Shown here piece by piece: positions 2,021 to 31,817 of a DNA stretch of 64,000 nucleotides. A model generated the notes under the pieces. The model saw only the letters and a program-made list of their open reading frames with translations, made no database searches and was not told the origin of the DNA. The stretch covers positions 19,804-83,803 of the forward strand of contig JAKEHO010000071.1 of assembly GCA_022614965.1 (NCBI GenBank), read 5' to 3'. The translations under genes and the position numbers were made by a program. The first letter of the stretch is position 1. Each line of letters opens with the position of its first letter. The stretch is from Gammaproteobacteria bacterium (GTDB lineage: Bacteria > Pseudomonadota > Gammaproteobacteria > JAKEHO01).

Positions 2021-2140
2021 GGGAGAGATTTAATTTTGGGGGCGGGCGGTGCCCGTTGCATCTCTACCTATCCCGCTTGATGTGATTGATTAACGCGATT
2101 GACGGACTTTCCTTTCAATGGGCAAGGCCTTCAATCGCCA
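2021..2140 (+). repeat. structured intergenic repeat R1 (modules A+B+C)
   Basis: gggagagatttaattttgggggcgggcggtgcccg..tctctacctatcccgcttgatgtgattg..aacgcgattgacgg...ggccttcaatcgcc. Confidence 0.9.
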
Positions 2141-2175
2141 CATTTCTAGAGCGTCATCGCAGGCGCACGCAGTAT

Positions 2176-2463
2176 TTAGCGCAGCAAGGCCTCGGGATGG
2201 CGTTCGGCGATGCGCAGGAGGGAGTGCGCAGGCCCTCTAGGCTTACGTCGGCCCTGCTCCCACTCTTGGAGGGTACGGGCGCTCACATTCATAAGGGCGG
2301 CGAATGCCTCCTGGGTTAGGCCAAGGCGTTCCCGAATCCGAACAATATCCTTTGCCGAGAGGGTCTTGTACTTACGGGTCTTCAACTTGATCTCGCCTTT
2401 CCGCCAGGCGGCGATCTCTTCCAATCCCGTGAGAATTTCCTTGCCAATATTGCGCTTACTCAT
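2176..2463 (-). CDS. XRE-family HTH antitoxin (partner of the RelE-like toxin)
   Basis: 95 aa starting at MSKRNIGKEIL. HTH segment LGLTQEAFAALMNVSARTLQEWEQGRR. ATGA overlap with the toxin stop. Confidence 0.8.
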   Translation of the reverse strand: MSKRNIGKEILTGLEEIAAWRKGEIKLKTRKYKTLSAKDIVRIRERLGLTQEAFAALMNVSARTLQEWEQGRRKPRGPAHSLLRIAERHPEALLR

Positions 2464-2774
2464 TTCAAAGTCTCCACAAGTCTTCGAATCCGCTTCAAGG
2501 TATCGGCGTCGATGTCTTCGCGCTCGCCCTTGGTATAGGCCGTCAGCAAATAAATGTGATCTTTCCTGGGTACCCAATAGTAGATCACCCGTGCGCCTCC
2601 AGATTTTCCTTTGCCGCGGATGGCCCACCTCAGCTTGCGAATTCCGCCGCTACCGCGAATGACCTTGCCCACGTCGGGCCGAGCCATGAGGAGGGTCTGC
2701 AGGGCAGTGTACTCGTCGTCACTCATGATCTTCGTGATGATGCTGGTAAAGAGCGTCGTTTCGACGAATATCAT
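2460..2774 (-). CDS. type II toxin, RelE/HigB-like
   Basis: 104 aa. Motif GGIRKLRW...GKGKSGGARVIYYW...IYLLTAYTKGEREDI is typical of RelE-family toxins. Lies upstream of, and is coupled to, the HTH antitoxin. Confidence 0.8.
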   Translation of the reverse strand: MIFVETTLFTSIITKIMSDDEYTALQTLLMARPDVGKVIRGSGGIRKLRWAIRGKGKSGGARVIYYWVPRKDHIYLLTAYTKGEREDIDADTLKRIRRLVETLK

Positions 2775-2881
2775 TTCCGCATACTACGTCATTGACGTAG
2801 TTAAGTCAAGATCCCAAACAGATCGCTGCCAATCTTGGTATTCCTCGATAAGGCTCTGGGCGCGCCAGCCGATCTATGAGG

Positions 2882-2999
2882 AGGACACAGAGGGTAGAAA
2901 AGTCGTTGGGAGTCTTTTCTTGCGTATATTTTCGGTGGCGGGCGGTGCCCGGCGTGTCGTTATATATATCCCGCTTGATGTGATCGGGCCACATCGCGG
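2882..2999 (+). repeat. repeat R2 (A with extra hairpin insertion + B + partial C)
   Basis: aggacacagagggtAGAAAAGtcgttgggagtCTTTTCTtgcgtatattttcggtggcgggcggtgcccg..tatcccgcttgatgtgatcgggccacatcgcgg. Abuts the hemolysin III stop codon. Confidence 0.85.
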
Positions 3000-3617
3000 T
3001 CAGGCGACGTACAAAACTACGGCAAGGTAGTGGGTGACGCTGCCAGTCAGTACGAATAGATGCCAGATGGCGTGGGCATGGCGAAGGCTATCAGCCACGG
3101 CGTAGAAACCGATGCCCGCGGTGTAAAACAGGCCGCCCGCTACCAACCAGACTATGCCTTGAAGGGGCAAGGCCTGCAATAACGGATTCAGGGCGATCAA
3201 GGCGAGCCAGCCCATCGCGAGATATATCACCACCGGCAGGATCCTGCGCCCTTTCCGCGGGAGAGAATCCAACACGATACCAAGGATGGCAAGACCCCAG
3301 ATCACTCCGAACAACGACCAGCCCCAGCCACCACGAAGCGTAACCAGAGTGAAGGGCGTATAGGTTCCCGCTATGAGCAAATAGATGGCATGGTGATCGA
3401 GCTTGAGGAAGACGTTTTTGGCCTTACCCTGAAGGCTGTGATAGAGCGTGGAAAAAATGTAAAGCAACAACAGGGTCGTACCATAAAGGCTAAAGCTCAC
3501 AACTTTCCAGGGGTCACCCTGGCGCGCAGCTAGAACCACGAGTACCGCTAGGCCCGCGGTTGCCGCTGCCGCGCCGATAAGGTGACTAATGCTGTTGAAT
3601 CTCTCTCCTTTATACAT
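3000..3617 (-). CDS. hemolysin III family (PAQR/YqfA-like) membrane protein
   Basis: 205 aa and 7-TM-like. N-terminal ERFNSISHLIG, plus YHS and HAxxH-type motifs typical of the hemolysin III family. Confidence 0.85.
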   Translation of the reverse strand: MYKGERFNSISHLIGAAAATAGLAVLVVLAARQGDPWKVVSFSLYGTTLLLLYIFSTLYHSLQGKAKNVFLKLDHHAIYLLIAGTYTPFTLVTLRGGWGWSLFGVIWGLAILGIVLDSLPRKGRRILPVVIYLAMGWLALIALNPLLQALPLQGIVWLVAGGLFYTAGIGFYAVADSLRHAHAIWHLFVLTGSVTHYLAVVLYVA

Positions 3618-3750
3618 CTATACATCATACATCTATACATCGCGTCGAAAGTGGAAAGGGAGAATGGAGCCAAGCTTGCATTATTGTATCATCCTTGATA
3701 AGTGTGCAGAGTTGCTATCCATGGACGCGATTTGCGATGGTTTAAAAAGG

Positions 3751-3812
3751 GGGACAGATTTATTTTCGGTTGCGAGCAGTGTCCGCCTTATCTCTAATTG
3801 TCCCGCTTGAAT
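3751..3812 (+). repeat. repeat R3 (A+B)
   Basis: gggacagatttattttcggttgcgagcagtgtccgccttatctctaattgtcccgcttgaatt. Ends about 12-15 nt before the GIY-YIG start codon. Confidence 0.9.
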
Positions 3813-3826
3813 TGCATAATATTGCA

Positions 3827-4123
3827 ATGAACTGGCACGTATACATGATTCTATGTACTGATAATTCGCTCTATACGGGGATTACCAATAATGTCGAAAA
3901 GCGTTTGTTTCGGCATACTGGACAGTATGGCGCCAAATATTTTCGCGGCCGTCGACCAGGGCAAGTGGTGTACCTCGAGAGTGGGCATACCCGCAGTTCG
4001 GCGACTCAAAGAGAGACAGCGATCAAGAAGATGCGGCGTATCGCTAAAGTCCATCTGATTGCCTCAGCAATGAACGAAGCCCCGCCTTTCACAGACGAAA
4101 TCAAAAGGATCAGCCTTGAATGA
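3827..4123 (+). CDS. GIY-YIG nuclease superfamily protein (UPF0213-like)
   Basis: Track ORF trimmed to ATG 3827. MNWHVYMILCTDNSLYTGITNNVEKRLFRH is a classic GIY..YIG N-terminus. Confidence 0.85.
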   Translation: MNWHVYMILCTDNSLYTGITNNVEKRLFRHTGQYGAKYFRGRRPGQVVYLESGHTRSSATQRETAIKKMRRIAKVHLIASAMNEAPPFTDEIKRISLE

Positions 4124-4197
4124 CATGGCGATTTACTAGTGGATCAAATGATTCAGACCGCAGGGTGGAGACAAGAAGAAGTGTAAACGAGAAGAAA

Positions 4198-4328
4198 GGG
4201 ACAGATTTATTTTCGGTTGCGGGCGGTGCCCGCTTTATCTCTATAATATATATCCCGCTTGATGTGATTTCTTGAAGCGATTTATGGGCCTTGTGCTCAA
4301 TGGGAGCTACACCCAGCCTTCAACGCCA
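4198..4328 (+). repeat. repeat R4 (A+B+C), near-consensus copy
   Basis: gggacagatttattttcggttgcgggcggtgcccgctttatctctataatatatatcccgcttgatgtgatttcttgaagcgatttatgggcc...agccttcaacgcc. Confidence 0.95.
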
Positions 4329-4381
4329 CCACCGGCTAGGACACCTCCGTTCCCTTTCGGACCAAGCCACCGGTATAACGC

Positions 4382-4411
4382 TTGACGTTATATAACGGCA
4401 GGCGTTATACT
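4382..4411 (+). promoter_or_regulatory. candidate higBA promoter with palindromic operator
   Basis: TTGACG (4382-4387), an 18-nt spacer, then TATACT (4406-4411). A perfect 12-bp palindrome CGTTATATAACG lies at 4386-4397, and CGTTATA is repeated at 4403-4409. Caveat: the -10 ends only about 7 nt before the proposed GTG start. Confidence 0.3.
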
Positions 4412-4417
4412 CTTTTG

Positions 4418-4702
4418 GTGATAAAGACCTTTCGCTCATCTGAAACAGAGTGCATCTGGAGGGGCGAAGTATCACGGCGGTTGCCACCCGCCATGCAACA
4501 CGTTGCGCGGCGTAAGCTGCGCATGCTGAACAACGCCGCTAGCTTGGGTGATCTACGGGTGCCGCCTGCCAACCGGCTGGAGGCGCTACGTGGCGCTAGA
4601 AAGGGACAGCATAGCATTCGTATCAACGATCGTTGGCGCATCTGTTTCGTGTGGAAAGGCAGTGACGCCTACGACGTGGAGATCGTGGATTATCATAGGT
4701 AG
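4418..4702 (+). CDS. higB: HigB-family toxin (plasmid maintenance system killer)
   Basis: Track ORF 4382..4702. The likely start is GTG 4418 (VIKTFRSS..). The C-terminus RINDRWRICFVWKGSDAYDVEIVDYH is typical of HigB. Confidence 0.8.
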   Translation: MIKTFRSSETECIWRGEVSRRLPPAMQHVARRKLRMLNNAASLGDLRVPPANRLEALRGARKGQHSIRINDRWRICFVWKGSDAYDVEIVDYHR

Positions 4703-4720
4703 AAGACGGAGCAGTACGTT

Positions 4721-5011
4721 ATGGCGAGACTACCCAACATACATCCCGGCGAAGTACTCCTCGAGGAGTTGTTGAAGCCGATGGGCATCAGCCAGAACAA
4801 GATCGCCCGCGAGATCGGTGTATCCCCTCGGCGGATCAACGAGATCGTACACGGCAAGCGGGCGATCACCGCGGACACCGCGCTGCGGCTGGCGAAGTAC
4901 CTTGGAGTGTCCGAGTCCTTTTGGATGGGGCTGCAGGCGGACTACGACCTGGAGGAAGCCAGGAAAGGGCTCGGTAGGAAGCTTGACCGCGTGCGGCCGC
5001 ACGCGGCCTAG
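4721..5011 (+). CDS. higA: HigA-family antitoxin (XRE HTH)
   Basis: 96 aa. HPGEVLLEELLKPMGISQNKIAREIGVSPRRINEIVHGKRAITADTALRLAKYLG is the canonical HigA sequence. Confidence 0.9.
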   Translation: MARLPNIHPGEVLLEELLKPMGISQNKIAREIGVSPRRINEIVHGKRAITADTALRLAKYLGVSESFWMGLQADYDLEEARKGLGRKLDRVRPHAA

Positions 5012-5080
5012 TCCATTGGCGTTTGATTACTGTATTTCGCCGAGCCCAAGCCGCCGGTGCAACTCACATACCGTGAGTAA

Positions 5081-5181
5081 GGGAACAGGTCGGAAAACGG
5101 ATCGGGCGTCTTTTCCGGCGTATATTTTTAGTTACGAGTGGTGCCCATCGTATATCAAACTATCCCGCTTGATGTGATTGG
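5081..5181 (+). repeat. repeat R5 (A with extra hairpin insertion + B)
   Basis: gggaacaggtcGGAAAAcggatcgggcgtcTTTTCCggcgtatatttttagttacgagtggtgcccatcgtatatcaaactatcccgcttgatgtgattg. Confidence 0.85.
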
Positions 5182-5300
5182 GTATAAAGTGTCATGTTAT
5201 ATCGCACCGTTAAGTCATCTCGTCATAGTTAGATAGTCTGCGCTCGTCACTATCATGGTTCGGTCAGAACACTCGTTACGCAAGAAAAAGGAGGTGCCTG

Positions 5301-5600
5301 ATGGATCCGAAGTCGCTAGGCGTGGTGGCGAGATTAAAGGCACGACCGGATAAGGTGAACGAACTTCGTTCCCTCTTGTTCGGACTGCTTGCCCCGACGC
5401 GACGTGAACCGGGCTGTATCCGCTACGAAATGCTCGTGAACAGGAAAGACCCGACGGAGTTTACGTTTATCGAGGAGTGGCAAGACGAACCAGCGCTCGA
5501 AGTTCATTTTGGCACAGATCATATCCGGTATGCGCTGGAGAGGTTTCCGGACCTGCTTGCAGAAGAGCTGGACGTTCGACGCTATAACCTGGTGGGCTAG
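5301..5600 (+). CDS. antibiotic biosynthesis monooxygenase (ABM) domain protein
   Basis: 99 aa. Has the pattern ARLKARPDKVNELRSLL...GCIRYEMLVNRKDPTEFTFIEEWQDEPALEVH. An RBS aaggagg lies upstream. Confidence 0.8.
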   Translation: MDPKSLGVVARLKARPDKVNELRSLLFGLLAPTRREPGCIRYEMLVNRKDPTEFTFIEEWQDEPALEVHFGTDHIRYALERFPDLLAEELDVRRYNLVG

Positions 5601-5617
5601 CTATGGACGATAATAGA

Positions 5618-5737
5618 GGAAGAGCGTCATTTTTGCGTGCGGGCGGTGCCCGGATTGTCTTTATATATTCCGCTTGATGTGATTCGTTGACGCGATCGAA
5701 GCGCTTGCCCGAGGAGGCAAGCTCCACCAATCGCGGC
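5618..5737 (+). repeat. repeat R6 (A+B+C)
   Basis: ggaagagcgtcatttttgcgtgcgggcggtgcccggattgtctttatatattccgcttgatgtgattcgttgacgcgatcgaagcgc...ccaccaatcgcggc. Confidence 0.9.
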
Positions 5738-5857
5738 TTTTAACATATCTTTGAACGAGACCAAACGCTATACTGGTTATTCGTGCCGGCTTTCGCTTTT
5801 GTTGATATCTAGACAAATTTGGCCGTTCTCTTATTTATTAGGGGTGTAAGGAAAAAA

Positions 5858-6304
5858 ATGGTAGAGCACTCCATCCAACTTTCGATACCAATTGCGTGGC
5901 TTCGCCTGAACGGCGTGTACCGCCTGTGGCGCTGGGGAGACAAGAAGAATGTGGGACTCGACTCGAATTGGGCGAAGCGAAACGTGATCTACCGATGGGT
6001 CAAAAACTCCACCGGCGAAGTCGCGACGATTGGCGAAACTGAGCGTATGTTGACTGAGCGGGCTGACACCTACTTGCAGGCGAAACGTGGGGGAGGTGCG
6101 GATCCAACCAAAAATAAGCTTTACCAAGAGCAGTCTCGACTAGAAAGGGACGGGGATTTCTTGTACCTGGAGTTCACTGAGGATGTCCTCGGATATGATC
6201 TTACCGATCAAAGCGATAGGCGGATGGCCGAGAGTCTCCTTGTGCGCGCCATCAAACCGTATTTTCAATCTACTTCAACCGAATCAAGACAATCCGACAC
6301 CTAA
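5858..6304 (+). CDS. hypothetical protein with GIY-YIG-like motifs
   Basis: Trimmed to ATG 5858 (RBS aaggaaaaaaATG). VIYRWVKNSTGEVATIGETERMLTER resembles GIY-x11-YIG-x-R, and ESLLVRAIKPYFQ resembles the C-terminal E..L...KP.N motif. Confidence 0.5.
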   Translation: MVEHSIQLSIPIAWLRLNGVYRLWRWGDKKNVGLDSNWAKRNVIYRWVKNSTGEVATIGETERMLTERADTYLQAKRGGGADPTKNKLYQEQSRLERDGDFLYLEFTEDVLGYDLTDQSDRRMAESLLVRAIKPYFQSTSTESRQSDT

Positions 6305-6552
6305 CGATTCAGGGTCACTTAGAGGACACCCATTCTGAATTCATGGCGTAGATTTAACCGTATCTTATCCTTGACCTGCGACCGAAAATAATTGTGGCTT
6401 TCGGGTGCGGCTCGCGTATAGTGTGCGCGTTGCAGTACACTTCTTGTAGTTAGTTCGGAAGTCCCTCCAGGTTTTTCGGCAGCTACTCCCGCATTCTCAC
6501 TTTCAGGAACGAACTGCAGAACATCGCAATTAAACCAAACAGAGGTATTTCC

Positions 6553-6756
6553 GTGAATACAGGCACAGTAAAGTGGTTCAACGATAGTAAGGGCTACGGC
6601 TTTATTACCCTTGAGGACGGGAGCAAGGATGTATTCGTGCATCACTCCGCCATCGAGGGTGATGGCTTCAAATCCCTGACCGAGGGCCAAAAGGTGACGT
6701 TCGAAATCGAGCAAGGCCCGAAGGGTCCGTCGGCAGTGAAAGTTCAGGCGGCCTAA
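6553..6756 (+). CDS. CspA-family cold-shock protein
   Basis: 67 aa. [15 protein letters not shown] (RNP1) and VFVHHSAI (RNP2). GTG start, preceded by more than 200 nt without ORFs, as is usual for csp leaders. Confidence 0.95.
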
Positions 6757-6792
6757 GCGTCAAGTACTGCGCAAGCAGGTTTTAGACGAAGA

Positions 6793-6817
6793 CCCCGCCA
6801 CCCGGCGGGGTTTTTTT
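6793..6817 (+). terminator. rho-independent terminator after csp
   Basis: CCCCGCC-accc-GGCGGGG followed by TTTTTTT. Confidence 0.85.
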
Positions 6818-6847
6818 CTTGGAGGGATAAGGTATCAGGAACCTTTT

Positions 6848-6909
6848 GACAACCTATTTTTAGTTGCGGGCGGTGCCCGTCAGGGATTGGAGGGTCAGGT
6901 CTTCAATTG
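6848..6909 (+). repeat. repeat R7 (A + C-like hairpin, B missing)
   Basis: gacaacctatttttagttgcgggcggtgcccgtcagggattggagggtcaggtcttcaattg. Confidence 0.75.
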
Positions 6910-6981
6910 TGAATCTCATTTGCCCATCCATGCGAGCACGTTGATGCCTGTGATCGCATGTGACTAAGTGATGGTAGAAAG

Positions 6982-7302
6982 ATGAGTAATAAACTGGGCG
7001 GTAGGGTAGTTTATATCGTTCCGCGGACTTGGCTCGGGCGTCTAGTTGCCTTCGTGGCCATTGTCGCGGTGTTTTTTTTGGGTATATTGTTCTTTGCTGT
7101 TTTTCTCGCAGCAATTGCCGCTGTCGCTGCTGTCGTAATCGCGCGGATATTATGGCTTCAGAGGCAAATCCGTCGACAGGGGTCGAAAGATTTCATTGAA
7201 GTGGAGTACACAGTGGAAGACACTGAAACGCGCCGGCCGGGCGAGATAGCACAATCGGATTCACAACGCGCAAAGGACCACGAAAATGAAGCGAATCACT
7301 GA
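6982..7302 (+). CDS. hypothetical membrane protein
   Basis: 106 aa with two hydrophobic helices (LVAFVAIVAVFFLGILFFAVFLAAIAAVAAVVIA) and a charged tail. Confidence 0.55.
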   Translation: MSNKLGGRVVYIVPRTWLGRLVAFVAIVAVFFLGILFFAVFLAAIAAVAAVVIARILWLQRQIRRQGSKDFIEVEYTVEDTETRRPGEIAQSDSQRAKDHENEANH

Positions 7303-7337
7303 CTCTCGAAAGCTACGCAATAAAAACAAAATAAAGT

Positions 7338-7400
7338 GGGGACAGATTTATTTTCGGTCGCGGGCGGTGCCCGAATTATCTCTTATCCCGCTTGATGTGA
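7338..7400 (+). repeat. repeat R8 (A+B)
   Basis: ggggacagatttattttcggtcgcgggcggtgcccgaattatctcttatcccgcttgatgtga. Confidence 0.95.
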
Positions 7401-7482
7401 AATCGTACAACACGGAAGTCCGGCAAAGGAAGCTCATCGGAACTCTGTTGATTGCGCAAACAGTCGCGTAACTCTGGTGCGC

Positions 7483-8727
7483 CTAGTCGCTCGCAGGGGC
7501 ACTAAAACCGGGCGGATATTTCTGCCACGGGTAGCCTTCCCGCGCCAGTTGATAGGCGTAGTCAAACAACTTCCGCATATAGTCGGTATCAAAATCCATT
7601 TTATGTTCGGCATTGAAATTCGCGCCGATATACGCGAGGTTATAGTCAATTCCATCCCGTTGAGCAATCGTGTATATCTGATAAAGGTCGCCAACGCCCT
7701 GGGTTTGAATGAGTGACGATATAGTGCGACTCAGAATGTCCAAGGTGCGTCGGTCTACGGAGGCCCAATCCGGGTCAAGGCGGGCATTGCGGATAATGTA
7801 AAGTGTTCTGTCGCGTTCGAAATGGCGGACTTTGGATTCCTCGCCTATGTTCAGAGAGGGCGGATAGGTAAAGACCTGCGCCATCGCCCCGCCGTCGACA
7901 TGCATTTCGTGATAGGGCGTTCCATCGACCTCGACATCGATCATGGTGGGAGGAAACGCCCCTGGAATAGCGGCCGATGCCACCATGATGTTACGGAACA
8001 GATCCACCGCCTTGGGATCCTTACTCGCCGCGATCGCGCCCATGTTCCAGATGACTGGCCGGCGCGCGTCCAGGTCAGTTGTCGCAATCATGAGAAAGCG
8101 GCCCTTGTTATATTCGTTTGCTATCTCGACCAACATTGCTTCGTCGATATACTGCGAGACCAGCTGCCATAAAGGTCGATTGTCAGCCATCGCGTCATCG
8201 AATACTGCGGCGAAGATGGTTCTTTTCTCGAGAACATCGTCTTGGGAAATTGTCGTATAGAGTTTCTTCAACGTGTCGTCATAGGCAGGGCCGAGGAAGG
8301 CAAAGGGGGCAATCAAGGCGCCCGTGCTGATCCCGGTTACCAGCTTGAATTCCGGGCGATTCCCGGCGTCAGTCCATCCAACCAGCAGTCCGGCACCGAA
8401 AGCCCCATTGTCACCGCCGCCGGAAATTGCAAGAAAATTAACTGGCGGCAGGGGACCGCGGTGTCCGGATCGAGCCAGGAACTGCTTCTCTCGCTCCATA
8501 CCCGCTAAAGCGAACGGGAGTATCGATTCAACACCGGAATCAGCAAAGAAACGCGCGTCGGGAATGCCGGGGACGGTGGCTTGTGTGGTGAACTCTGCCG
8601 GCACTGCGTCCCGGCGAGTCGGAAGGGCGCAGCCTTGAAGCAGAAGCAAAAATACGGTTACTGACAAGAAGCAGTTCCGGGGCAAACTGCTAGGGGTAAA
8701 TGGTTGGTAAGTTTCTTGTTTTTTCAC
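7483..8727 (-). CDS. patatin-like phospholipase, lipoprotein
   Basis: 414 aa. Lipobox LLLQGC, oxyanion GGGDNGAFGAG, nucleophile GISTGA (GxSxG), and DGG. Confidence 0.9.
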   Translation of the reverse strand: MKKQETYQPFTPSSLPRNCFLSVTVFLLLLQGCALPTRRDAVPAEFTTQATVPGIPDARFFADSGVESILPFALAGMEREKQFLARSGHRGPLPPVNFLAISGGGDNGAFGAGLLVGWTDAGNRPEFKLVTGISTGALIAPFAFLGPAYDDTLKKLYTTISQDDVLEKRTIFAAVFDDAMADNRPLWQLVSQYIDEAMLVEIANEYNKGRFLMIATTDLDARRPVIWNMGAIAASKDPKAVDLFRNIMVASAAIPGAFPPTMIDVEVDGTPYHEMHVDGGAMAQVFTYPPSLNIGEESKVRHFERDRTLYIIRNARLDPDWASVDRRTLDILSRTISSLIQTQGVGDLYQIYTIAQRDGIDYNLAYIGANFNAEHKMDFDTDYMRKLFDYAYQLAREGYPWQKYPPGFSAPASD

Positions 8728-8877
8728 AGTCAGACCATACTCACTGTCGCCTGGCGGTTCTTCGCACTCGGTTTTTGTTGAGGAACAGCAGTACCCGGGT
8801 CGTCATTATGCCACCGTTTCCCGGGTGCGCGCCAGAGGCGCTGGGCAAGAAGTGGCCGTCGGTACTCAACAGGACTA

Positions 8878-8930
8878 GGGGACAGAATCATTTTTGGTTG
8901 CGGGCGGTGTCCGGCTTATTTCTAACTATG
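8878..8930 (+). repeat. repeat R9 (A + partial B)
   Basis: ggggacagaatcatttttggttgcgggcggtgtccggcttatttctaactatg. Confidence 0.85.
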
Positions 8931-9054
8931 CCTCTTTTTGCGACTTCCGTCACAGTTTCGCGAGCGGGATTGTGACTCATTTCACACTGCAGGTGACCAT
9001 CTATAACTAGCATTATGGGGTGCATCCATTTGTAGAGGGCGCGAGGGTTTAACA

Positions 9055-9456: not shown

Positions 9457-9478
9457 GAGACATAAAAACTAAATAAAA

Positions 9479-9598: not shown

Positions 9599-9621
9599 TT
9601 CCATTTGGTGCGCGGTCGTCT

Positions 9622-23597: not shown

Positions 23598-23604
23598 AGA
23601 AAAT

Positions 23605-24653: not shown

Positions 24654-24823
24654 GGTTTAATTGCGAGGTTGGCTATCGGACCTGGTGAACTATTTCGCCT
24701 TCTAACTTGCAAAATAGGCTTGCTACAGACCAGGAAGTGCCCAAAAATACACTTATAAAAACGGGATGAGTTTAAAGCGACCTCTTCCTGTTCGACACAC
24801 AATGAAGTACGCGAAAGGGTTAA

Positions 24824-26056
24824 TTGCCCATGGCGTTCAGTCTTGATGAGTTCTATCGCCTTAACCGGCGTGCACTGATTTGGATAATTCTTGCTGTCCT
24901 ATTGTGGTTATTACGTGATTTCGTTGATCTTATTTTTCTCACGTTTATGCTCGCCTTTATCGCCACGCCGTTGTTCCGCCTTGGACAAAAATGGCTAAGA
25001 CTACCGTATCGCATTTCGCTGGTTGTGGTTTATCTTGTATTTCTTTTGATCCTGTCTGCTTTCATAAGATACGTCACGCCAACTGTAATATTTGAAGCAA
25101 ACCAGTTTCTTGCGAACCTGAGGGAGTCTGAGCAAAGAATCGTTCAGTTGGAGAGCGATTTAGTTGACAAGTATCCGAGCATTGATCGTGCGGTGCGCGG
25201 ATATGTGCGCGGTTTTCTTGATGAAGGGACACTTGAAATTATACGCAATCAGTTACTTGAGGAACGCAAGCGTCTCGAGATCTCTGATGAGGATCTCGCC
25301 GATTATTTTTACGGGCAGCCGCTGAATAGTGAGACCGCGGCAAGCATCGATATATACTTCGCGTATGAAGATCGGTTGCTTATCGAATCCTTTCTTGCAC
25401 AAAAAGCATCTGTCTTCCGCGAACACGTTCCCAGGCTAACTAATGCTCTTTATCAGGCCCTGGCGACCGTACTGCTTGCGTTATTATTCAGCTTTCTGAT
25501 CCTCGTTGATATTGTGAGGCTCAGCAGGCTGATGGAAAGTCTTAGAGATTCGCGTTTACGTGATTTCTACAGTGAGACGGCCGAACCTGTGGCCCGTTTC
25601 GGGTATATGGTTGGAAGAGGTATTCAGGCGCAAGCCATGATCGCGTTGGTTAATACGTTTTTGACAATTTGTGGACTATTTATTTTATCGATTCCGGCGA
25701 TGGCCGTGCTTTCGGTGATTGTGTTTGTTTGCAGCTTCATACCTGTCCTGGGCGTTTTGATATCGACCGTCCCAATCCTACTGGTAGCGCTCAATTCCGG
25801 TGGTCTCCAGCTTGGGGTCGCGGTGTTGGTTCTCATAATAGTGATCCACGCAATCGAGGCATATCTACTTAATCCGCTGATTTATGGCAGGCATTTCAGA
25901 CTGAACCCCGTCATCGTGTTGACTATTTTGTTAGTCGGCTATCATCTTTTTGGAATTTGGGGGCTATTGCTCGGCGTACCTGTCGCGCAGTATTTCATTC
26001 ATCACGTCTTCGGAGTACCCGTATTCCGCGAGGCCCGGATTGAATCTGCAAACTAG
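24824..26056 (+). CDS. AI-2E family transporter (PerM/UPF0118)
   Basis: 410 aa, multi-TM, with a long central soluble loop. The C-terminal LNPLIYGRHFRLNPVIVLTILLVGYHLFGIWGLLLGVP is typical. The start is either TTG 24824 or ATG 24830. Confidence 0.85.
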   Translation: MPMAFSLDEFYRLNRRALIWIILAVLLWLLRDFVDLIFLTFMLAFIATPLFRLGQKWLRLPYRISLVVVYLVFLLILSAFIRYVTPTVIFEANQFLANLRESEQRIVQLESDLVDKYPSIDRAVRGYVRGFLDEGTLEIIRNQLLEERKRLEISDEDLADYFYGQPLNSETAASIDIYFAYEDRLLIESFLAQKASVFREHVPRLTNALYQALATVLLALLFSFLILVDIVRLSRLMESLRDSRLRDFYSETAEPVARFGYMVGRGIQAQAMIALVNTFLTICGLFILSIPAMAVLSVIVFVCSFIPVLGVLISTVPILLVALNSGGLQLGVAVLVLIIVIHAIEAYLLNPLIYGRHFRLNPVIVLTILLVGYHLFGIWGLLLGVPVAQYFIHHVFGVPVFREARIESAN

Positions 26057-26166
26057 ACTCATTGATTACGTATAAATGGGGGCTAACGGAAAAAGGACGG
26101 TTCCCGCTGAAGGAGCGTCGGCCCGGTCAGATTTTAAATTGTGAAGTTCATGCCTGACACAAAGTA

Positions 26167-26212
26167 GGGGGACAGGCTTGTTTTGGTTACGGGTGGTGCC
26201 CCGCTGATCTCG
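26167..26212 (+). repeat. repeat R17 (module A only)
   Basis: gggggacaggcttgttttggttacgggtggtgccccgctgatctcg. Ends 12 nt before the DUF429 start codon. Confidence 0.8.
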
Positions 26213-26224
26213 AGTTATGCCGCA

Positions 26225-26947
26225 ATGATGAGGTATATTGGGGTTGATGGGTGCTGTAGCGGCTGGTTTTGGGTCGGGCTCTCTGACAGATCAGATTGGC
26301 GCACTGGGATTTGTAAAAGTGCCAAGGCCCTCGGTGCCGTAGCGGCGGCGTCGAGGGTGACCCTTATTGACGTGCCCATTGGCCTTCGTGATGCGGGGTG
26401 CGAAGAACGCCTATGTGACAAAGTCGCACGGCGGGCACTTGGGCCACGGGCCTCTAGTGTTTTTCCGGCACCCGCGAGAGCGACGCTCGCAGCGGAAGAT
26501 TACACGCAAGCCAAGGGGATTAATCGCGAAGTGCTCGGTCGTGGCCTCAGCCTCCAATCGTGGGCTATCACCCCAAAGATAAGAGAGATTGATGATCTCC
26601 TGCGGAGCCCGGGTGGTCTGCGAAACTTAGTGAGAGAAGTTCATCCGGAGGTATGTTTCTGGGGCCTTAACGGCAAGCGCCCTATGGCCCACAACAAGAA
26701 AAAGCGAGCGGGTCGTGAAGAACGTGTTGAACGGATGACGAAGATACTCCCCGAGACCTCGTCGATCATCGCCTGTGTTGCTCGTATCTATCACCGGCGC
26801 GATGTCGCATGGGATGACATCCTCGATGCACTCGTTGCGGCCATTACAGCCAAACTTGGTGCCGGCAGGCTACAGACTCTCCCCGCCAAGCCGGCGACTG
26901 ACGCTTTCGGCTTGCCAATGGAGATGGTCTTTACAGAGCTATCGTAA
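26225..26947 (+). CDS. DUF429 domain protein
   Basis: Trimmed to ATG 26225. MMRYIGVDGCCSGWFWVGL is the typical DUF429 N-terminus. Confidence 0.8.
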   Translation: MMRYIGVDGCCSGWFWVGLSDRSDWRTGICKSAKALGAVAAASRVTLIDVPIGLRDAGCEERLCDKVARRALGPRASSVFPAPARATLAAEDYTQAKGINREVLGRGLSLQSWAITPKIREIDDLLRSPGGLRNLVREVHPEVCFWGLNGKRPMAHNKKKRAGREERVERMTKILPETSSIIACVARIYHRRDVAWDDILDALVAAITAKLGAGRLQTLPAKPATDAFGLPMEMVFTELS

Positions 26948-26952
26948 GATAA

Positions 26953-27011
26953 GGCGACAGGTCTAGTTTCGCTAATGGCCGATGCCTGGGTTATCTCTCG
27001 CTATCCGCTTG
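26953..27011 (+). repeat. repeat R18 (diverged A+B)
   Basis: ggcgacaggtctagtttcgctaatggccgatgcctgggttatctctcgctatccgcttg. Overlaps the last codons of the minus-strand ORF 27001..27318. Confidence 0.65.
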
Positions 27012-27318
27012 CCCCGCGCAATGCCTTGAGTTTGGCAATCTCATCCCGCCTGTCTGTCACTTGGGCCAGCATAATGCCTAACTCAAGTATCCCGCTTGCT
27101 AAAACGGCACCCGTTGCGTCATCCACCGACTCAATCGTGAGCATCTTTTCGTAGCATTTTTTAGGCAATTGTCCGAATTGTTGTTTGTATAGCGCTAGGT
27201 TAAAAGCAAGGAGTCTGGCACATTCTGCCAGATCCTCCTTACTGGAATCTGCCATGAGCTCATTAATTTGCATGTAGAAGTTCTTAAATTTTTCGAGGTC
27301 GTCAGATAGATCAGCCAT
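27001..27318 (-). CDS. hypothetical protein (helical)
   Basis: 105-aa ORF. RBS gaggagag upstream. No family recognised. Confidence 0.5.
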   Translation of the reverse strand: MADLSDDLEKFKNFYMQINELMADSSKEDLAECARLLAFNLALYKQQFGQLPKKCYEKMLTIESVDDATGAVLASGILELGIMLAQVTDRRDEIAKLKALRGASG

Positions 27319-27441
27319 GCGGATGCTCTCCTCAGTCCATCGATAGCTATAGTACGTCCCTCTACGAACAATAAAAAGACTAGAGCAAGCAGGGGCGCAG
27401 ACTAACTGACGCTCGTAAGGTCAACCAAGGAACGGGATAAA

Positions 27442-27508
27442 GGGACAGAGTTATTCTTGGGGACGGGCACCTCCGTCCCATCTTTCACGCCCGCTTGATG
27501 TAATTGAT
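27442..27508 (+). repeat. repeat R19 (A+B, covarying inner stem)
   Basis: gggacagagttattcttgggGACGGgcacctCCGTCccatctttcacgcccgcttgatgtaattg. Confidence 0.9.
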
Positions 27509-27759
27509 TAAAATCCTTCAGAGCTTTTTTGCGGTTACTACGCCACGGCTTCCACATCCTGCTATTATTCGTTCTGTGCAACCTGACTGTGTAGGTATCC
27601 TCTATGGTCAGTTTGCTAACCTGGCTTATGAATTTGTGGTTAGCTCAAATTATTGGTACAGGAATAGCCTTTACGAGACGGCCGGTGTGTAGGGTACTTT
27701 GCCGGTTTGTTTAACATATTCAGCCTCAATTAGCAGCAAGGCATATCTGGACTGGATCA

Positions 27760-28221
27760 ATGGGATTATTTGGGAAGAGTAAAAAAGAGATTCAGCGGGT
27801 CTCCGAGATGATCCGAAAAAGGATCGCAGAGATCGATGCCATCTTAAAAGAACGTGACGTGGATGGATTACGCACGTTTCTAAAAGAGCGAGGCGTAAAA
27901 TATCAAGACGATGATCGATGGATTAACTGGAGTTATCCTGAGCTTCCTGAGTTTATGTTTCAATTCAGGAGAAGGGAATTTCTTGTCGATGGGAAAATGG
28001 GCTATTCTGGCTTTCAGCTGCTCGGGGGGAGTACCCAGCGGTACTCAGTGCAGGCGCGCGATAGAAAATCCGCAACCGGTCCTGCTGCAACACGCTCTGC
28101 AAAAAAGCTAAAAGAGTTATTGTCGGGATATGCTGAATTCTATGACCTAGATAAAGCGCGGGAAGAGCTAGATAAATCCCTAAAAAAACCCAAGATTATA
28201 AAAGATAGGAATATTTGGTAA
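27760..28221 (+). CDS. hypothetical protein
   Basis: 153-aa ORF, Lys/Glu-rich. No family recognised. Confidence 0.5.
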   Translation: MGLFGKSKKEIQRVSEMIRKRIAEIDAILKERDVDGLRTFLKERGVKYQDDDRWINWSYPELPEFMFQFRRREFLVDGKMGYSGFQLLGGSTQRYSVQARDRKSATGPAATRSAKKLKELLSGYAEFYDLDKAREELDKSLKKPKIIKDRNIW

Positions 28222-28224
28222 TCA

Positions 28225-28355
28225 GGGGCAGCAGGGCGGGGTCGAACGGGGAAAGCGTTGATCATCCGTTAGGGGGCGATGCCCGTGTCATGTCGGCCGA
28301 TCTCGCTTGGTGCGATTGGTTCACTGAGGCAGCTCTAAGGCCATACCAGCGTTGG
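28225..28355 (+). repeat. repeat R20 (degenerate copy)
   Basis: ggggcagcag..[insert]..gttagggggcgatgcccgtgtcatgtcggccgatctcgcttggtgcgattggttcactgagg... Recognisable, but with many substitutions. Confidence 0.45.
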
Positions 28356-28558
28356 CACGTTACCGGTCGTGATTGGGGGTTGCGCGGCTTTGCTTGGGTC
28401 CGGAGCCCTAGCAGGTCCGACGGCTATGCTGAGGTATGTGTCTCAACTATCAGAATCATATGGGTTATTTTCTTGCCAAAACTTCGCGTTTTTAGACATG
28501 TTATCGGCTATAATGTTGCGCTGCACCACAACCACCTTTTGATGGAGGTTGATCCGAC

Positions 28559-29524
28559 ATGCGTAACAAGACGCGAAAAGTAAACCTGGCCCTGCAGGGC
28601 GGTGGCTCTCACGGGGCGTTCACGTGGGGCGTGCTCGATCGCCTGTTGAAGGACGAGAGACTGGAGATCGAGGGCATCAGCGGCACGAGCTCCGGCGCAA
28701 TGAACGCGATCGTTCTGGCTGACGGCCTTGCGAAAGGCGGGCGCAGAGGCGCGCGCCTTGCCTTGAGGCAATTTTGGGAGCAGGTGTCTAAGGTGCTGCC
28801 CCGGAACCTCAGCCCGCTCGCGCTCTCCAGGTTGATGTCACCGTATGATCTCAATCCCTTAGGACTCAACCCGTTGCGCGACATCCTGGCTGAGCGGATC
28901 GACTTCGATCGCAGTCCGTCCGATTGGCCGGTTAAGCTGTTCATCAGTGCCACCGAGGTGCAAACGGGTAAGATCAAGATCTTCACCAATCATCACCTCT
29001 CGCTGGATGCGTTGCTTGCATCGGCCTGCCTCCCCTCACTCCACCATGCGGTTGAAATCGACGGCAAGGTCTACTGGGATGGCGGATATTCGGGAAATCC
29101 CCCGATCTTTCCGCTGATTTTCGAATGCCGGAGTCCCGATGTGGTTGTCGTGATGCTTCAGCCGCTTTACCGTCCGGATACCCCTTACACAGCGGCGCAA
29201 ATCCGCACGCGGGCCGTCGAGCTTGGCTTTAGTGCGGCATTTCTCCGGGAGATGCGCGCCATCGCCTATTGCAAGCAGCAGATTAAGAAGGGTTGGCTTC
29301 CGCCTCTCGGTATCGAGAGAAAGCTCTCGCGGCTGAATATCCATCTCATTGAGGCGCAGGAAGTCATGGAGCAGTTCGACCAGGAGAGCAAACTAGATAT
29401 CCGACCAGCATTTATCCAACAGCTCCACGGTGAAGGTATAAGGGCGGCTTCGCGATGGCTACGGGCCAATTTCGATCACCTAAGATTGAAATCCTCGGTA
29501 GATCTTGTGGACGTCTTTTGTTGA
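28559..29524 (+). CDS. patatin-like phospholipase (cytoplasmic type)
   Basis: 321 aa. LALQGGGSHGAFTWGVL, GTSSGA (GxSxG), YWDGGYSGNPP (DGG). Confidence 0.9.
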   Translation: MRNKTRKVNLALQGGGSHGAFTWGVLDRLLKDERLEIEGISGTSSGAMNAIVLADGLAKGGRRGARLALRQFWEQVSKVLPRNLSPLALSRLMSPYDLNPLGLNPLRDILAERIDFDRSPSDWPVKLFISATEVQTGKIKIFTNHHLSLDALLASACLPSLHHAVEIDGKVYWDGGYSGNPPIFPLIFECRSPDVVVVMLQPLYRPDTPYTAAQIRTRAVELGFSAAFLREMRAIAYCKQQIKKGWLPPLGIERKLSRLNIHLIEAQEVMEQFDQESKLDIRPAFIQQLHGEGIRAASRWLRANFDHLRLKSSVDLVDVFC

Positions 29525-29663
29525 ACTTCAAAAACGCCCTCAGCTCGATTTTCGCTAAGCATTATTCCCTTTCAGCTACGCTATTTATTCATGGAAACGG
29601 TTACCGGGGAGCCTTGTTCTACGGGCACCTTAAGTTGCCTAACAAATAACAGGTGATAATCGT

Positions 29664-29947
29664 ATGGATGTAAAAGTATTAGCTCCTGTATTTACAGCAA
29701 TCTTTATCGCTGAGTTGGGCGATAAGACACAATTGGCGACAATGCTATTTGTCGCGGATAAGCAAGTGAGTAAGGCAACGGTTTTTTTGGTGTGTCATTG
29801 GCCCTTGTGGTTGCTTCGGCTGATTCTTCACTGGCGATTTTTGCCAGTCTACTCACGGGCCGCGCACGGGGAGGGTGCATATTTCACCTTGCATTAGGAT
29901 TGGTCGGGCTAGCGGGGGGCTTGCTTTTGGCACTTACCACTCGTTAA
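29664..29947 (+). pseudogene. UPF0016 (GDT1/TMEM165-like) family membrane protein, frameshifted
   Basis: The N-terminus FIAELGDKTQLATMLF carries the family ELGDKTQ motif. The reading frame breaks in the T7 run at 29782-29788. The -1 frame continues GVSLALVVASADSSLAIFASLL...GLLLALTTR to TAA 29945-29947. Confidence 0.65.
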
Positions 29948-30137
29948 GCCCAGTACCAAATGAAACCAAAGGGAGTCCGCCACACCGTCGTGAAGCACCA
30001 AGCCAGCACTGATCGCAAACGGAGAAGGACGCAGATCTCTCGAGCGGGATCACTCTATTAACAGCGAGTGACGGGGAATTTCTACAGGCGTTCACGGTCT
30101 GAATTAGTAATTATGGGAGAGTGCAATTGGAGGTTTG

Positions 30138-30704
30138 ATGAAACGCCGAAACTTGCTTAAAGGCATGGTGGCGGCGCCCTTGCTGATGGTGATGGCACGC
30201 TATGGGTTTGCTGCAGAGAATTCGGGAGGATCAGTGAACGTGGAAGAGCTACAGGCGAACTGGATGGATCTACTTGCGGAGGGTTCCGACGTGGTGTTAA
30301 CCCGCGAACCGCTCAACCTCACCAAGGAGGAGTGGAAGAAGATCCTCACATCGGCGCAATTTCACGTACTGCGCGAGGAAGGCACCGAACGCCCCCACAC
30401 GAGCCCGCTGAACGAAGAAAAAAGGCTCGGCGTCTACATATGTGTTGGCTGCAGCCTGCCACTGTTCACGTCAGCGATGAAATATGATAGCGGTACCGGC
30501 TGGCCAAGTTTCTTTACCACGATTCCCGGTGCATTCGCCACGAAGAAAGACTACGTATGGCTATTGCCGAGGACCGAGTACCACTGCGTGCGCTGCGCCG
30601 GCCATCAGGGTCACGTGTTTGATGACGGACCGGCGCCCACTGGTCAGCGCTGGTGTAATAATGGGGTGGCGCTGCGTTTTGTCCCTAAAACCGGCGAATC
30701 TTGA
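30138..30704 (+). CDS. msrB: peptide-methionine (R)-S-oxide reductase MsrB with Tat-type signal
   Basis: KRRNLLKG twin-arginine motif followed by a hydrophobic region. Zn CxxC pairs (CVGC, CVRC). Catalytic RWCNNG. GHVFDDGP. Confidence 0.9.
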   Translation: MKRRNLLKGMVAAPLLMVMARYGFAAENSGGSVNVEELQANWMDLLAEGSDVVLTREPLNLTKEEWKKILTSAQFHVLREEGTERPHTSPLNEEKRLGVYICVGCSLPLFTSAMKYDSGTGWPSFFTTIPGAFATKKDYVWLLPRTEYHCVRCAGHQGHVFDDGPAPTGQRWCNNGVALRFVPKTGES

Positions 30705-30827
30705 GCAATCAGGTTTGTTGAGGCCCTTGCTACCCTATGCTCGGGTCAACTGACGTCGAATACGGCCTCAGTAACCTGGCCGCACCCGCCGCGCACGGTG
30801 TCCATGACAAGGGCGCAGGTGAGATGA

Positions 30828-30850
30828 GCGGGCAGATTTTTAATTGTTAG
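30828..30850 (+). repeat. repeat R21 (5' fragment of module A)
   Basis: gcgggcagatttttaattgttag. The counterpart of R15, next to the intact DUF899 copy. Confidence 0.55.
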
Positions 30851-30882
30851 ATTCTTCGAGTGCTTTCTCAGACCATGGGAAG

Positions 30883-31551
30883 TCAAACGGGGAGTGGAGG
30901 GTACCAGTCGCCCCGTCCACCCGGTGTGGTGTCTAAGACGTTCCACAGCGGCCACATGAGGTCCATATGACGCGCATCGCCTTCTGCGTCGGCATACAGC
31001 AACTCGGTTCCCCAGAAGTGATGGATCGCGCCATTTCGACGAACGAACACGTTGGCCATCGGCATCTGCTGGCCTTCCTCATCTTCAGCGAAGTAGTCGA
31101 GGTGATAACTGTTGTTTGCGGACGAGAGTAGATGCAAGGCATCCCAGCCACGTGCCTTTGCGAACTTGATCATCCGTTGGATAGGCGAGCGCGCGACCAC
31201 AGCGAAATTGATCCTTTGCATGATATGGTGAGCATTACCGTTTAGCCCATCGAGGAGCGAGCTACACATCGGGCACGGCTTTTCCATCTTCGGTCCGTAC
31301 ATGAATCCGTAAAGGAACAGCGTGTCCTTGTCGCCTTGGAAAAGCTTTGACAGCCTGACCTTAATTGCCTTTCCGTGGCGATCAAGCGCCTCGAACACAT
31401 AGTCCTCTCTGACCGTACCCCCAAGCGGTAGCTTTCTGCGCATGGCCGCAACCCGCTCAATTTGTAGTTTCAGCTCGACCTCGGCTTTTAGGAGGCCGAT
31501 TCGCGCATGGCGGTATTCAGTTGTTTCATTCGGAAACTTAATCTCTGTCAT
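30883..31551 (-). CDS. DUF899 domain (thioredoxin-like) protein
   Basis: Trimmed to ATG 31551 (RBS ggaggt; MTEIKFPNETTEYR). CPMCSSLLDG motif. 222 aa. Confidence 0.9.
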   Translation of the reverse strand: MTEIKFPNETTEYRHARIGLLKAEVELKLQIERVAAMRRKLPLGGTVREDYVFEALDRHGKAIKVRLSKLFQGDKDTLFLYGFMYGPKMEKPCPMCSSLLDGLNGNAHHIMQRINFAVVARSPIQRMIKFAKARGWDALHLLSSANNSYHLDYFAEDEEGQQMPMANVFVRRNGAIHHFWGTELLYADAEGDARHMDLMWPLWNVLDTTPGGRGDWYPPLPV

Positions 31552-31755
31552 TGGTACCTCCGGATCTATGACCAATCAGCAGGAAATTCAACACAGGTAA
31601 ACGGGACGCATAGCGGCCATTCTGGGGTTGCAAGAGGACCTTACCCAGTATGGCAGCGAAGACGATCGCAAGTTCATTCCGTTTCCTGCACCCAGTGATT
31701 AAAACGACGAGCGGCGGTGGGGCGGTTGGGTCTTGCAATGCCACATCAGGGGAAA

Positions 31756-31817
31756 TGGGAACAATTGTATCTTCACTTACGGGCGGTGGCTGCATCACTC
31801 TAACGATCCGCTTGATG
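31756..31817 (+). repeat. repeat R22 (diverged A+B), last copy in the window
   Basis: gggaacaattgtatcttcacttacgggcggtggctgcatcactctaacgatccgcttgatg. Confidence 0.75.

Follow-up and report, generated by a model that had tools for sequence, protein, structure and literature searches.

A clustered, co-oriented modular repeat without canonical attC features in a reshuffled accessory-gene array of a gammaproteobacterium

Integrons stockpile single genes as cassettes and change their order, and are, to our knowledge, the only bacterial system of this kind that is well understood. Their discovery started from co-oriented repeats clustered between small unknown genes. Their attC sites carry an inverse core, RYYYAAC, paired with a core, GTTRRRY, and the two close an imperfect hairpin of 57-141 nt. 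Here, we analyzed a 64,000-nt stretch of gammaproteobacterial DNA (GCA_022614965.1, contig JAKEHO010000071.1, positions 19,804 to 83,803; hereafter the window), in which a modular intergenic repeat recurs between small accessory genes. The copies are clustered and co-oriented, are packed tightly on gene ends, lack canonical attC features, and bound units that are reshuffled between genomes with their orientation preserved. A sequence-only reading of the same DNA had noted this array and offered two explanations, a cassette-type platform using a non-canonical site and an unknown recombinase, and a strand-specifically inserted miniature inverted-repeat transposable element (MITE).

Other families of small repeats provide further points of reference. 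Classical MITEs have terminal inverted repeats and are flanked by a target-site duplication. Elements derived from IS200/IS605 have subterminal hairpins and insert 3' of a fixed target of 4-5 nt, with the Y1 transposase TnpA encoded in the genome. Repetitive extragenic palindromes (REPs), which are associated with REP-associated tyrosine transposases (RAYTs), are 20-40 nt long, usually form inverted pairs and are dispersed, and the RAYT gene is flanked by REPs. A promoter early stem-loop (PeSL) cassette combines a strong sigma-70 promoter with a terminator stem-loop, and is exchanged by homologous recombination. In the hyperplastic regions of T4-type phages, PeSLs are the promoter-terminator motifs that shuffle genes (PMC2839356, PMC4122927).

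We searched both strands of the window using an nhmmer profile made from the copies. This search yielded 20 copies at E<=1e-5, all on the + strand, between 2018 and 31819; the rightmost one, with its start of module C, extends to 31870. Partial copies were found at 13634 (module B only), at 23223 and 23599 (5' part only) and at 30826 (5' part only, by eye). The weakest of the 20 solid copies (6838-6882, E=1e-5) comprises the module A hairpin only. The sequence-only reading had counted 22 copies, which is about right; by our count, the window has 20 solid and 4-5 partial ones. Its statement that none is inverted was borne out, the best match on the - strand having E=0.7, and so was the lack of a clear copy to the right of 31.8 kb, with zero profile matches from 31.9 to 64 kb. 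The start of the array, which it had placed at 2021, had to be moved. Three further co-oriented copies lie to the left of the window on the source contig, at -2539, -1441 and -694 in window coordinates. The left flank was read from GCA_973794095.1 (contig CCZKQX010000016.1), where the window runs in reverse.

The whole array spans ~34.4 kb and holds 23 solid and at least 4 partial copies on a single strand. Over a continuous stretch of 82.5 kb (-18.5 kb to +64 kb) we found no copy outside it, neither in 16 kb on the left nor in 32 kb on the right; all 27 copies fall within 42% of the stretch. A further ~28 kb, taken from other contigs of the species and from a relative, had none as well, in keeping with the local clustering noted before. 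The chance expectation for exact or near-exact matches to two module consensus sequences was 0.00, and a repeat finder also recovered the family. Short-read assemblies of two runs were identical base for base over the portions covered, and because they agree, the array is not an assembly artefact. The array is real, and it is larger than was first seen.

The full copies fix the order of four modules, X-A-B-C. Module X is GGGACAGATTTATTTT. Module A is a GC-rich hairpin of 5-7 bp, typically CGGGC-GGT-GCCCG, which is built from other sequence in the copies at 13040, 27436, 9474 and 5106. Module B, ATCTCTAACTATCCCGCTTGATGTGATTG, is the best conserved block (~30 nt). Module C is a long hairpin; its outer stems are GCGATTGA/TCAATCGC, its inner stem, GGGCCTTGC/GCAAGGCC, is semi-conserved, and a short T-rich run comes after it. 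A direct repeat of 14 nt recurs at the end of B and the start of C. Module C had been put at about ten copies, which agrees with the nine that we found (2018, 4192, 5612, 9474, 13040, 15271, 21136, 22444 and 24536) plus a partial start at 31752. Isolated pieces (X only, A only, or B with or without C) occur here and in relatives.

In the copies at 2897 and 5093, X is replaced by a common terminator-like hairpin (repeat family D12). This hairpin module, GAAAAG...CTTTTC, lies at 2897-2925 and 5093-5121, directly 5' of the repeat copies at otherwise unrelated junctions. Another hairpin module, AAGGT..ACCTTTTGACAAC, stands directly 5' of repeat copies across genomes, at 6826-6853 in the window and at 2065-2092 of a contig from a third lineage (L004). 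In the predicted fold, the A hairpin can be enclosed by pairing between X and the beginning of B. Short hairpins are kept with differing sequence in several copies, and a hairpin structure is plausible. The copies are 60-85% alike; the longest identical stretch between any of them is 24 nt, with a median of 9. The A hairpin and a T-rich tail were flagged as terminator-like on the + strand in four copies. We found no sigma-70-like promoter match inside any copy and no Rfam 15 match on any copy, either at the gathering score or up to E=5. The copies and the units of the window are as follows.

2018..2150, + strand: repeat X-A-B-C (nhmmer E=8e-22); C hairpin GCGATTGA...TCAATCGC; a - strand antitoxin gene has its stop 26 nt past the end of the copy
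2897..2996, + strand: repeat with the alternative upstream hairpin instead of X, then A-B and a short hairpin (nhmmer E=4e-13); linked through D12 to the 5093 copy; ends 3 nt before the HlyIII stop
3745..3828, + strand: repeat X-A-B and a short hairpin (nhmmer E=2e-18); the hairpin overlaps the GIY-YIG ATG (3827)
4192..4335, + strand: repeat X-A-B-C, nearest to the consensus (nhmmer E=4e-22); exact module A consensus match
5093..5185, + strand: repeat with the alternative upstream hairpin instead of X, then A-B (nhmmer E=8e-15); family D12
5612..5745, + strand: repeat X-A-B-C (nhmmer E=8e-18); begins 12 nt past the ABM stop
6838..6882, + strand: partial copy, T-run and GC hairpin of module A only (nhmmer E=1e-5); preceded by a 28-nt hairpin common to L004
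7333..7404, + strand: repeat X-A-B (nhmmer E=4e-19)
8874..8947, + strand: repeat X-A-B with variant B (nhmmer E=4e-16); the homology of the 133-aa unit to the relative contig L189 begins at the first bases of B, ~8920
9474..9600, + strand: repeat X-A-B-C (nhmmer E=8e-15); perfect 13-bp stem in C
13040..13165, + strand: repeat X-A-B-C, A hairpin of other sequence (nhmmer E=2e-14)
13634..13670, + strand: weak partial copy, B only (nhmmer E=0.05)
15271..15392, + strand: repeat with degenerate A, B and a variant C hairpin (nhmmer E=4e-15)
21136..21262, + strand: repeat A-B-C (nhmmer E=4e-13); begins 3 nt past a stop codon
22444..22562, + strand: repeat X-A-B-C (nhmmer E=2e-16); begins 6 nt past the CDGSH stop; L189 homology ends at 22440
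23223..23257, + strand: partial copy, X and half of the A hairpin (nhmmer E=0.02)
23599..23623, + strand: partial copy, X only (from the sequence); paralogous to the partial copy at 30826
24536..24665, + strand: repeat X-A, shortened B, C (nhmmer E=2e-14)
26164..26240, + strand: repeat X-A-B (nhmmer E=4e-12)
26948..27011, + strand: repeat X-A and part of B (nhmmer E=3e-11); begins 1 nt past the DUF429 stop
27436..27512, + strand: repeat X-A-B, 7-bp A hairpin of other sequence (nhmmer E=1e-12)
28248..28324, + strand: repeat X-A-B (nhmmer E=4e-11)
30826..30850, + strand: degenerate partial copy, X only (by eye and from the DUF899-unit alignment; below the nhmmer threshold)
31752..31870, + strand: last right-hand copy, X-A-B and the start of C (nhmmer E=4e-12); C start common to the 24536 copy
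23661..24361, - strand: DUF899 pseudogene unit, paralogue of the 30883-31795 unit (repeat families D6 and D7, alignment)
30883..31795, - strand: intact DUF899 and 85-aa gene, duplicated unit bounded by repeat pieces (gene calls and alignment)
2151..31751, no strand: in-window array of ~23 repeat-bounded units, 0.34-5.7 kb, GC 0.45-0.59, mostly one gene or one toxin-antitoxin (TA) pair (gene calls, Pfam, GC per unit)

Across the whole array, gene calls and Pfam gave 26 units of 0.34-5.7 kb, and 17 of these consist of one gene or one TA pair. The cargo was as the sequence-only reading had listed it (TA pairs, patatins, DUF899, GYD, ABM, CDGSH, MsrB and, for its RiPP operon, an MbnB/HvfC operon), except that it had named GIY-YIG nucleases in the plural and only one such gene is present. 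Two further claims needed revision. Copies do not fill almost every gap, being found in ~27 of roughly 40 intergenic gaps, and their distance from + strand stops is 0-298 nt rather than 3 to ~145 bp. The 5' side of the copies abuts + strand stop codons, within 0-12 nt in seven cases, and the 3' side (B or C) abuts - strand stop codons, mostly within 0-26 nt. Nine copies lie in tandem + gaps, three in tandem - gaps, eight in convergent and seven in divergent gaps, with constant orientation. Because tandem, convergent and divergent gaps are all occupied, the copies do not go with any one transcriptional role. The units differ in GC (0.45 to 0.59), and GC taken in 1-kb steps varies about twice as much as in the right flank.

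One unit has been duplicated. The two DUF899 copies (23661-24361 and 30883-31551, both on the - strand) each have the 85-aa gene region upstream, and their homology has an X-only piece at its left end and the full repeat at its right end. The first copy is broken into small ORFs (open reading frames), a pseudogene. The single GIY-YIG gene (3827-4123, +) belongs to the widespread UPF0213 family, and no link between it and the repeats was established. Its start is most likely at 3827, inside the terminal hairpin of the 3745 copy, while the public call is 3845. The cold-shock protein gene forms one repeat-bounded unit, over which a full-length match to the cspA thermoregulator was obtained (RF01766, 98 bits; 6424-6818, +). 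The largest unit holds an MbnB/TglH-type and HvfC-type pair (17516-19585, +; 19631-20215, -) with a 125-aa upstream gene and a TetR regulator, resembling an operon for a ribosomally synthesized and post-translationally modified peptide (RiPP).

The strongest evidence on the behavior of the units came from a relative. A 25-kb contig (L189), found through a 66%-identical DUF2459 homologue, is the sole informative one. It contains the same repeat family in a more degenerate form, and its 16 profile matches at E-values up to 10 all share a strand. At least nine homologous blocks link it to our region at 68-82% nucleotide identity, all with the same orientation relative to the repeats. Seven blocks are in the array (GIY-YIG, 133-aa gene, CDGSH, DUF2459, GYD with DUF899, 153-aa gene and MsrB), and the GIY-YIG block is the best conserved (82%). 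Two further blocks, DUF1353 and an 85/95-aa gene region, are found in the right flank at 34.6-35.8 kb. The order of the blocks is 8,6,3,4,1,7,5,9,2 in L189 against 1-9 in the window, and the neighbors differ. In one genome or in both, a repeat copy is found no more than 70 nt from most block ends. A comparison of repeat-bounded units between related genomes had been set as the test on which the array would be judged an ordinary dispersed repeat if the unit content were identical; the content in L189 is reshuffled.

The 133-aa unit defines its ends most closely. The match to L189 opens with TCTAAC, the first bases of B (~8920), runs through the conserved leader and the gene, and ends ~9 nt past the stop codon, just before the next X. 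In the leader (8921-9054), identity rises from ~55% at the repeat end to ~80% into the start codon, the latter about equal to that of the coding blocks common to L189. Inverted repeats GTCACAG...TGTGAC lie inside it, and the leader may be a cis-regulatory RNA. The DUF899 copy in L189 is intact and adjoins GYD, and the L189 array also holds an EF-hand gene.

A third lineage, from another metagenome (L004-L007), has one full, one B-C-only and one A-only copy, all co-oriented; the two half copies flank one gene. The neighbors of these repeats (SET, polyketide cyclase-like, isochorismatase) are unrelated to those in the window. This cluster, the only further one found, was reached through a spurious ORF that matched the translated repeat used as a protein query. 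Scanning public genome and metagenome collections with an exact two-module pattern gave nothing, and a 17-mer scan of genome and metagenome collections gave 108 loci, all attributable to chance, those inspected being in apparent coding sequence. Viral collections gave chance matches only. Since the pattern scans returned nothing beyond chance, the repeat family is rare or diverged in the scanned collections. Look-ups of identical proteins returned only identical arrangements, and the second assembly of the species (GCA_022616165.1) was not among the matches to array proteins in three look-ups. A 100%-identical DUF2459 protein (P0123) is encoded on another contig of 123.9 kb. The closest named homologues of two proteins are from Acidiferrobacterales and unclassified gammaproteobacterial metagenome-assembled genomes, and the host possibly belongs to the Acidiferrobacterales.

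With these results, we compared the array with integrons. Sedentary integrons and clusters of attC sites lacking an integrase (CALINs) likewise have dozens of co-oriented, imperfectly palindromic repeats in one chromosomal block, between compact, mostly single-gene accessory or unknown units. TA pairs, duplicated units and an order that differs between relatives are common to both, and a CALIN also has no nearby integrase. Co-oriented sites with compact cassettes that are reordered, gained and lost between relatives, as expected of an attC array, were observed: the copies are all on one strand, and the blocks shared with L189 keep their orientation but not their order. The sites themselves differ. 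The array site has neither the RYYYAAC/GTTRRRY pair nor the R/L box geometry, and it is built of modules, among them two separate parts able to form hairpins and one conserved linear block. We scanned for an RYYYAAC...GTTRRRY pair closing a fold of 50-145 nt, a home-made proxy and not the IntegronFinder model. The scan detected an aadA-type attC, a control that matched plasmid records at 100% over 58 nt (2,515 matching), and a looser version picked up the two attC sites of a class 1 integron. Of the 27 copies, just 5 overlapped any candidate, which is the background rate, and the scan matches were evenly spread over the region. This agrees with the earlier statement that canonical attC sites are missing. 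AAC/GTT triplets occur in only about half of the copies, with a polarity that is the reverse of attC (GTT on the 5' arm). The gene content also departs from integrons, with a third of the genes antisense, several multi-gene units and no IntI in 85 kb.

The remaining classes were compared in the same way. PeSLs resemble the array as small, composite, co-oriented intergenic stem-loop repeats that flank small novel genes in a plastic region and are tied to modular shuffling. They differ in that our repeats are on a bacterial chromosome, have no promoter consensus and separate genes on both strands, and that copies sharing at most 24 identical bases are too diverged for the homologous exchange proposed for PeSLs. 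A PeSL-type regulatory cassette was rejected on the missing promoter-like match (the terminator-like hairpin being present in four copies) and on the longest exact match of 24 nt. The pneumococcal BOX, the enterobacterial bacterial interspersed mosaic elements (BIMEs) and REPs and the neisserial intergenic mosaic elements (NIMEs) share with our repeat short sub-elements in varying combinations, hairpin potential and an intergenic, non-coding location. They are, however, genome-wide and in both orientations, with REPs usually in inverted pairs, whereas a single co-oriented array was found in the DNA sampled here. The REP/BIME/RAYT class was dismissed as there are no inverted copies, none in ~76 kb of non-array DNA and no Y1 transposase domain on record. 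A classical MITE was likewise excluded: the ends, GGGACAGAT... and ...TCAATCGCGGC, are not mutually inverted, and there is no flanking duplication. With regard to IS200/IS605, the repeat has two hairpin-forming parts, which are unlike each other, and left flanks that are A-rich without a fixed short target (by eye).

The pdif modules of Acinetobacter plasmids, which depend on XerC/XerD, are accessory modules including TA pairs that are bounded by one short site and have no adjacent dedicated recombinase gene, as seen here. Their sites are dif-like, 28 bp long (11-6-11) and of alternating orientation, while the array sites are 70-150 nt, unlike dif and co-oriented. We rejected pdif/Xer and dif sites on this uniform orientation and, by inspection, on conserved blocks without dif-like sequence. 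A simple terminator or promoter was discarded because the orientation ignores gene direction and no promoter-like match was found inside the copies. Accretion of a tandem island at a tRNA gene was set aside, as the window has no tRNA or tmRNA. A CRISPR-like array and polar motifs similar to KOPS (FtsK-orienting polar sequences) or Chi were considered and dropped.

Three other explanations of the array have to be weighed. A REP- or MITE-like non-autonomous element, possibly moved by an HUH-type transposase encoded elsewhere, may have colonized the gaps of a plastic island, with the reshuffling as a by-product and the co-orientation as strand-specific insertion relative to replication. We regard this as unlikely, albeit worth serious consideration. 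The modular mosaic, with its X-only, A-only and B-C-only pieces and the alternative hairpin modules common to copies, recalls BOX, BIME and NIME, and two hairpin-forming parts without coding capacity would suit such an element. GC skew is positive over nearly the whole window, so that one strand is leading throughout and a single orientation is what a strand-specific inserter would give; moreover, some shared genes have the repeat in one genome only, which fits gain and loss of repeats independent of genes. Against this, the clustering is extreme (27/27 copies in 42% of 82.5 kb, none in ~28 kb of other contigs), the relative's unit order is not conserved, unlike after insertion into a pre-existing cluster, and the copies are old (60-85% alike), yet unit GC is very different. 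Terminal inverted repeats, a target-site duplication or a fixed 4-5-nt target were not seen at the left flanks (by eye), and no Y1 transposase, RAYT, TnpA or TnpB was among the recorded Pfam hits of ~85 kb. The strand-specific MITE of the sequence-only reading is consistent with the single orientation, but clustering and reshuffling need an added explanation.

The regulatory possibility, a composite spacer (terminator, insulator or RNA-stabilizing hairpins) that spread with its genes and with homology-driven exchange, as in T4-type phages, appears improbable to us. The A hairpin with its T-rich tail could act as a + strand terminator in four copies; it follows + strand stops, and the C hairpin abuts - strand stops. 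PeSLs are a precedent for small co-oriented regulatory repeats able to mediate modular shuffling and to form mini-circles (PMC2839356, PMC4122927). Such a role is hard to reconcile with an orientation that is independent of gene direction and with seven copies between divergent starts, where no terminator is needed. The repeat matches neither a sigma-70-like promoter nor an Rfam family, and the exact shared stretches are too short for efficient homologous exchange. A true integron-related attC cluster, that is, a CALIN or decayed sedentary integron with diverged sites handled by an IntI encoded elsewhere, seems more improbable still. Clustered, co-oriented, imperfectly palindromic repeats between small unknown ORFs and TA pairs are the pattern from which chromosomal integrons were discovered, the host is gammaproteobacterial, and the start of B reads GTTAGAG on the - strand, near GTTRRRY, with one unit boundary at this point. 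This interpretation is opposed by the scan that detected its controls and overlapped the copies at the background rate, by the AAC/GTT triplets, present in about half of the copies and of reversed polarity, and by the lack of an integrase domain among the recorded Pfam hits of 85 kb.

The explanation that we favor, and to which we would give an even chance, is a chromosomal cassette-type array, in which the modular, co-oriented, non-attC junction element marks the boundaries of accessory units and a putative recombinase is encoded elsewhere. It corresponds to the cassette platform proposed by the sequence-only reading, and the reshuffling in L189 and the clustering support it better than the MITE, its site-specific mechanism and recombinase being putative. 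Recombination between two co-oriented junction elements would release a unit as a circle, and recombination of the circle with another junction element would reinsert it. Through such excision and reinsertion, units would be gained, lost, duplicated and reordered without inversion; we infer that no process simpler than circle exchange would reorder units and never invert them. The engine would most likely be a recombinase that recognizes sequence or structure and is encoded elsewhere in the genome, with homologous recombination being less likely. Efficient RecA-dependent exchange in E. coli requires a minimal length of ~23-27 bp. Because the copies share at most 24 identical bases, with a median of 9, RecA-driven exchange is disfavored and a dedicated enzyme is favored. 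The conserved linear block B beside hairpins of drifting sequence fits a protein-binding core with structural arms.

As a lead, the crossover may be located near the A|B junction, because one shared unit (133-aa) starts at B and because A-only and B-C-only half copies exist. In that case, the mobile unit would be B-C, the gene or genes, and X-A. A more specific form of the favored explanation, which we put forward tentatively and judge somewhat unlikely, is a second cassette-capture system independent of integrons. A putative dedicated recombinase or nuclease, encoded at a distance from the array, would act on a bipartite site (X-A | B-C), with crossover near A|B, and would move single-gene units in fixed orientation within and between genomes of this gammaproteobacterial group.

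Several observations weigh against the cassette-type array. Among the genes called from ~-18.5 kb to +67 kb, Pfam recorded no integrase, transposase, HUH enzyme or serine recombinase domain, as the sequence-only reading had stated for integrase and transposase. All sequences are metagenome assemblies, and ~62 kb to the right and ~86 kb to the left on the source contig lie outside the stretch read. No excised circle, empty site or population variant was seen in the sequences at hand. The proposed stems gained no covariation support, as 77.6% of the cells pair compared with 77.7% in column shuffles. The asymmetry of G-T versus A-C (32 vs 20, p=0.13) was not significant and singled out no folding strand. 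About one in three genes runs antisense to the repeats, and 3-7 genes are found in several of the units. In L189, several shared units (DUF2459, GIY-YIG) have no recognizable repeat on one or both sides, and two repeat-flanked units (DUF1353 and the 95-aa gene) are outside the array here. The repeat is thus not required at every unit boundary.

To the right of the array, ordinary-looking genes follow. On the left, the boundary abuts the stop codon of a HerA-like ATPase gene. This ATPase (583 aa) and a 768-aa partner with a weak HARE-HTH match adjoin the first repeat copy (L001 14224-18302; window -2539 to -6617). Of the two, only the ATPase matched defence models (those of HerA); together they are possibly an uncharacterized defence pair. 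Farther left, a non-coding stretch of ~360 nt lies inside a 1.2-kb gene-free gap (L001 ~18900-19265; window ~-7580 to -7217) and recurs at L004 1-370, the two being 90% identical over a core of 114 nt; in both genomes, the first repeat copy follows a few kb downstream. The stretch matches no Rfam family and is missing from L189; a platform element, an RNA gene and another small mobile element are all candidates for it. Two gene fragments also lie to the left of the window, the first 84 codons of a type I methyltransferase (HsdM_N; L001 13827-14081) and a truncated NYN protein of 131 aa compared with ~210 aa in its homologues (L001 19785-20180). These fragments indicate that truncation has recurred in the island.

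The core genes that lie 11.5-18.5 kb left of the window (Lhr helicase, MgtC, glycerate kinase; L180 1-7000) have a GC of 0.62. GC is 0.49-0.52 from their edge through the array and the entire right flank to 64 kb, and the low-GC region may be far larger than the array. In the right flank, tandem paralogous genes for secreted EF-hand-like proteins are present at 60630-60974 and 61388-61798 on the + strand (repeat families D9, D10 and D17).

Integron-like behavior without attC or a nearby integrase would imply either different recombination machinery or small structured repeats that organize shuffling without a dedicated enzyme. Either outcome would widen the known routes to bacterial accessory-gene arrays. 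The repeat profile provides a probe for further such arrays and for any gene that co-occurs with them.

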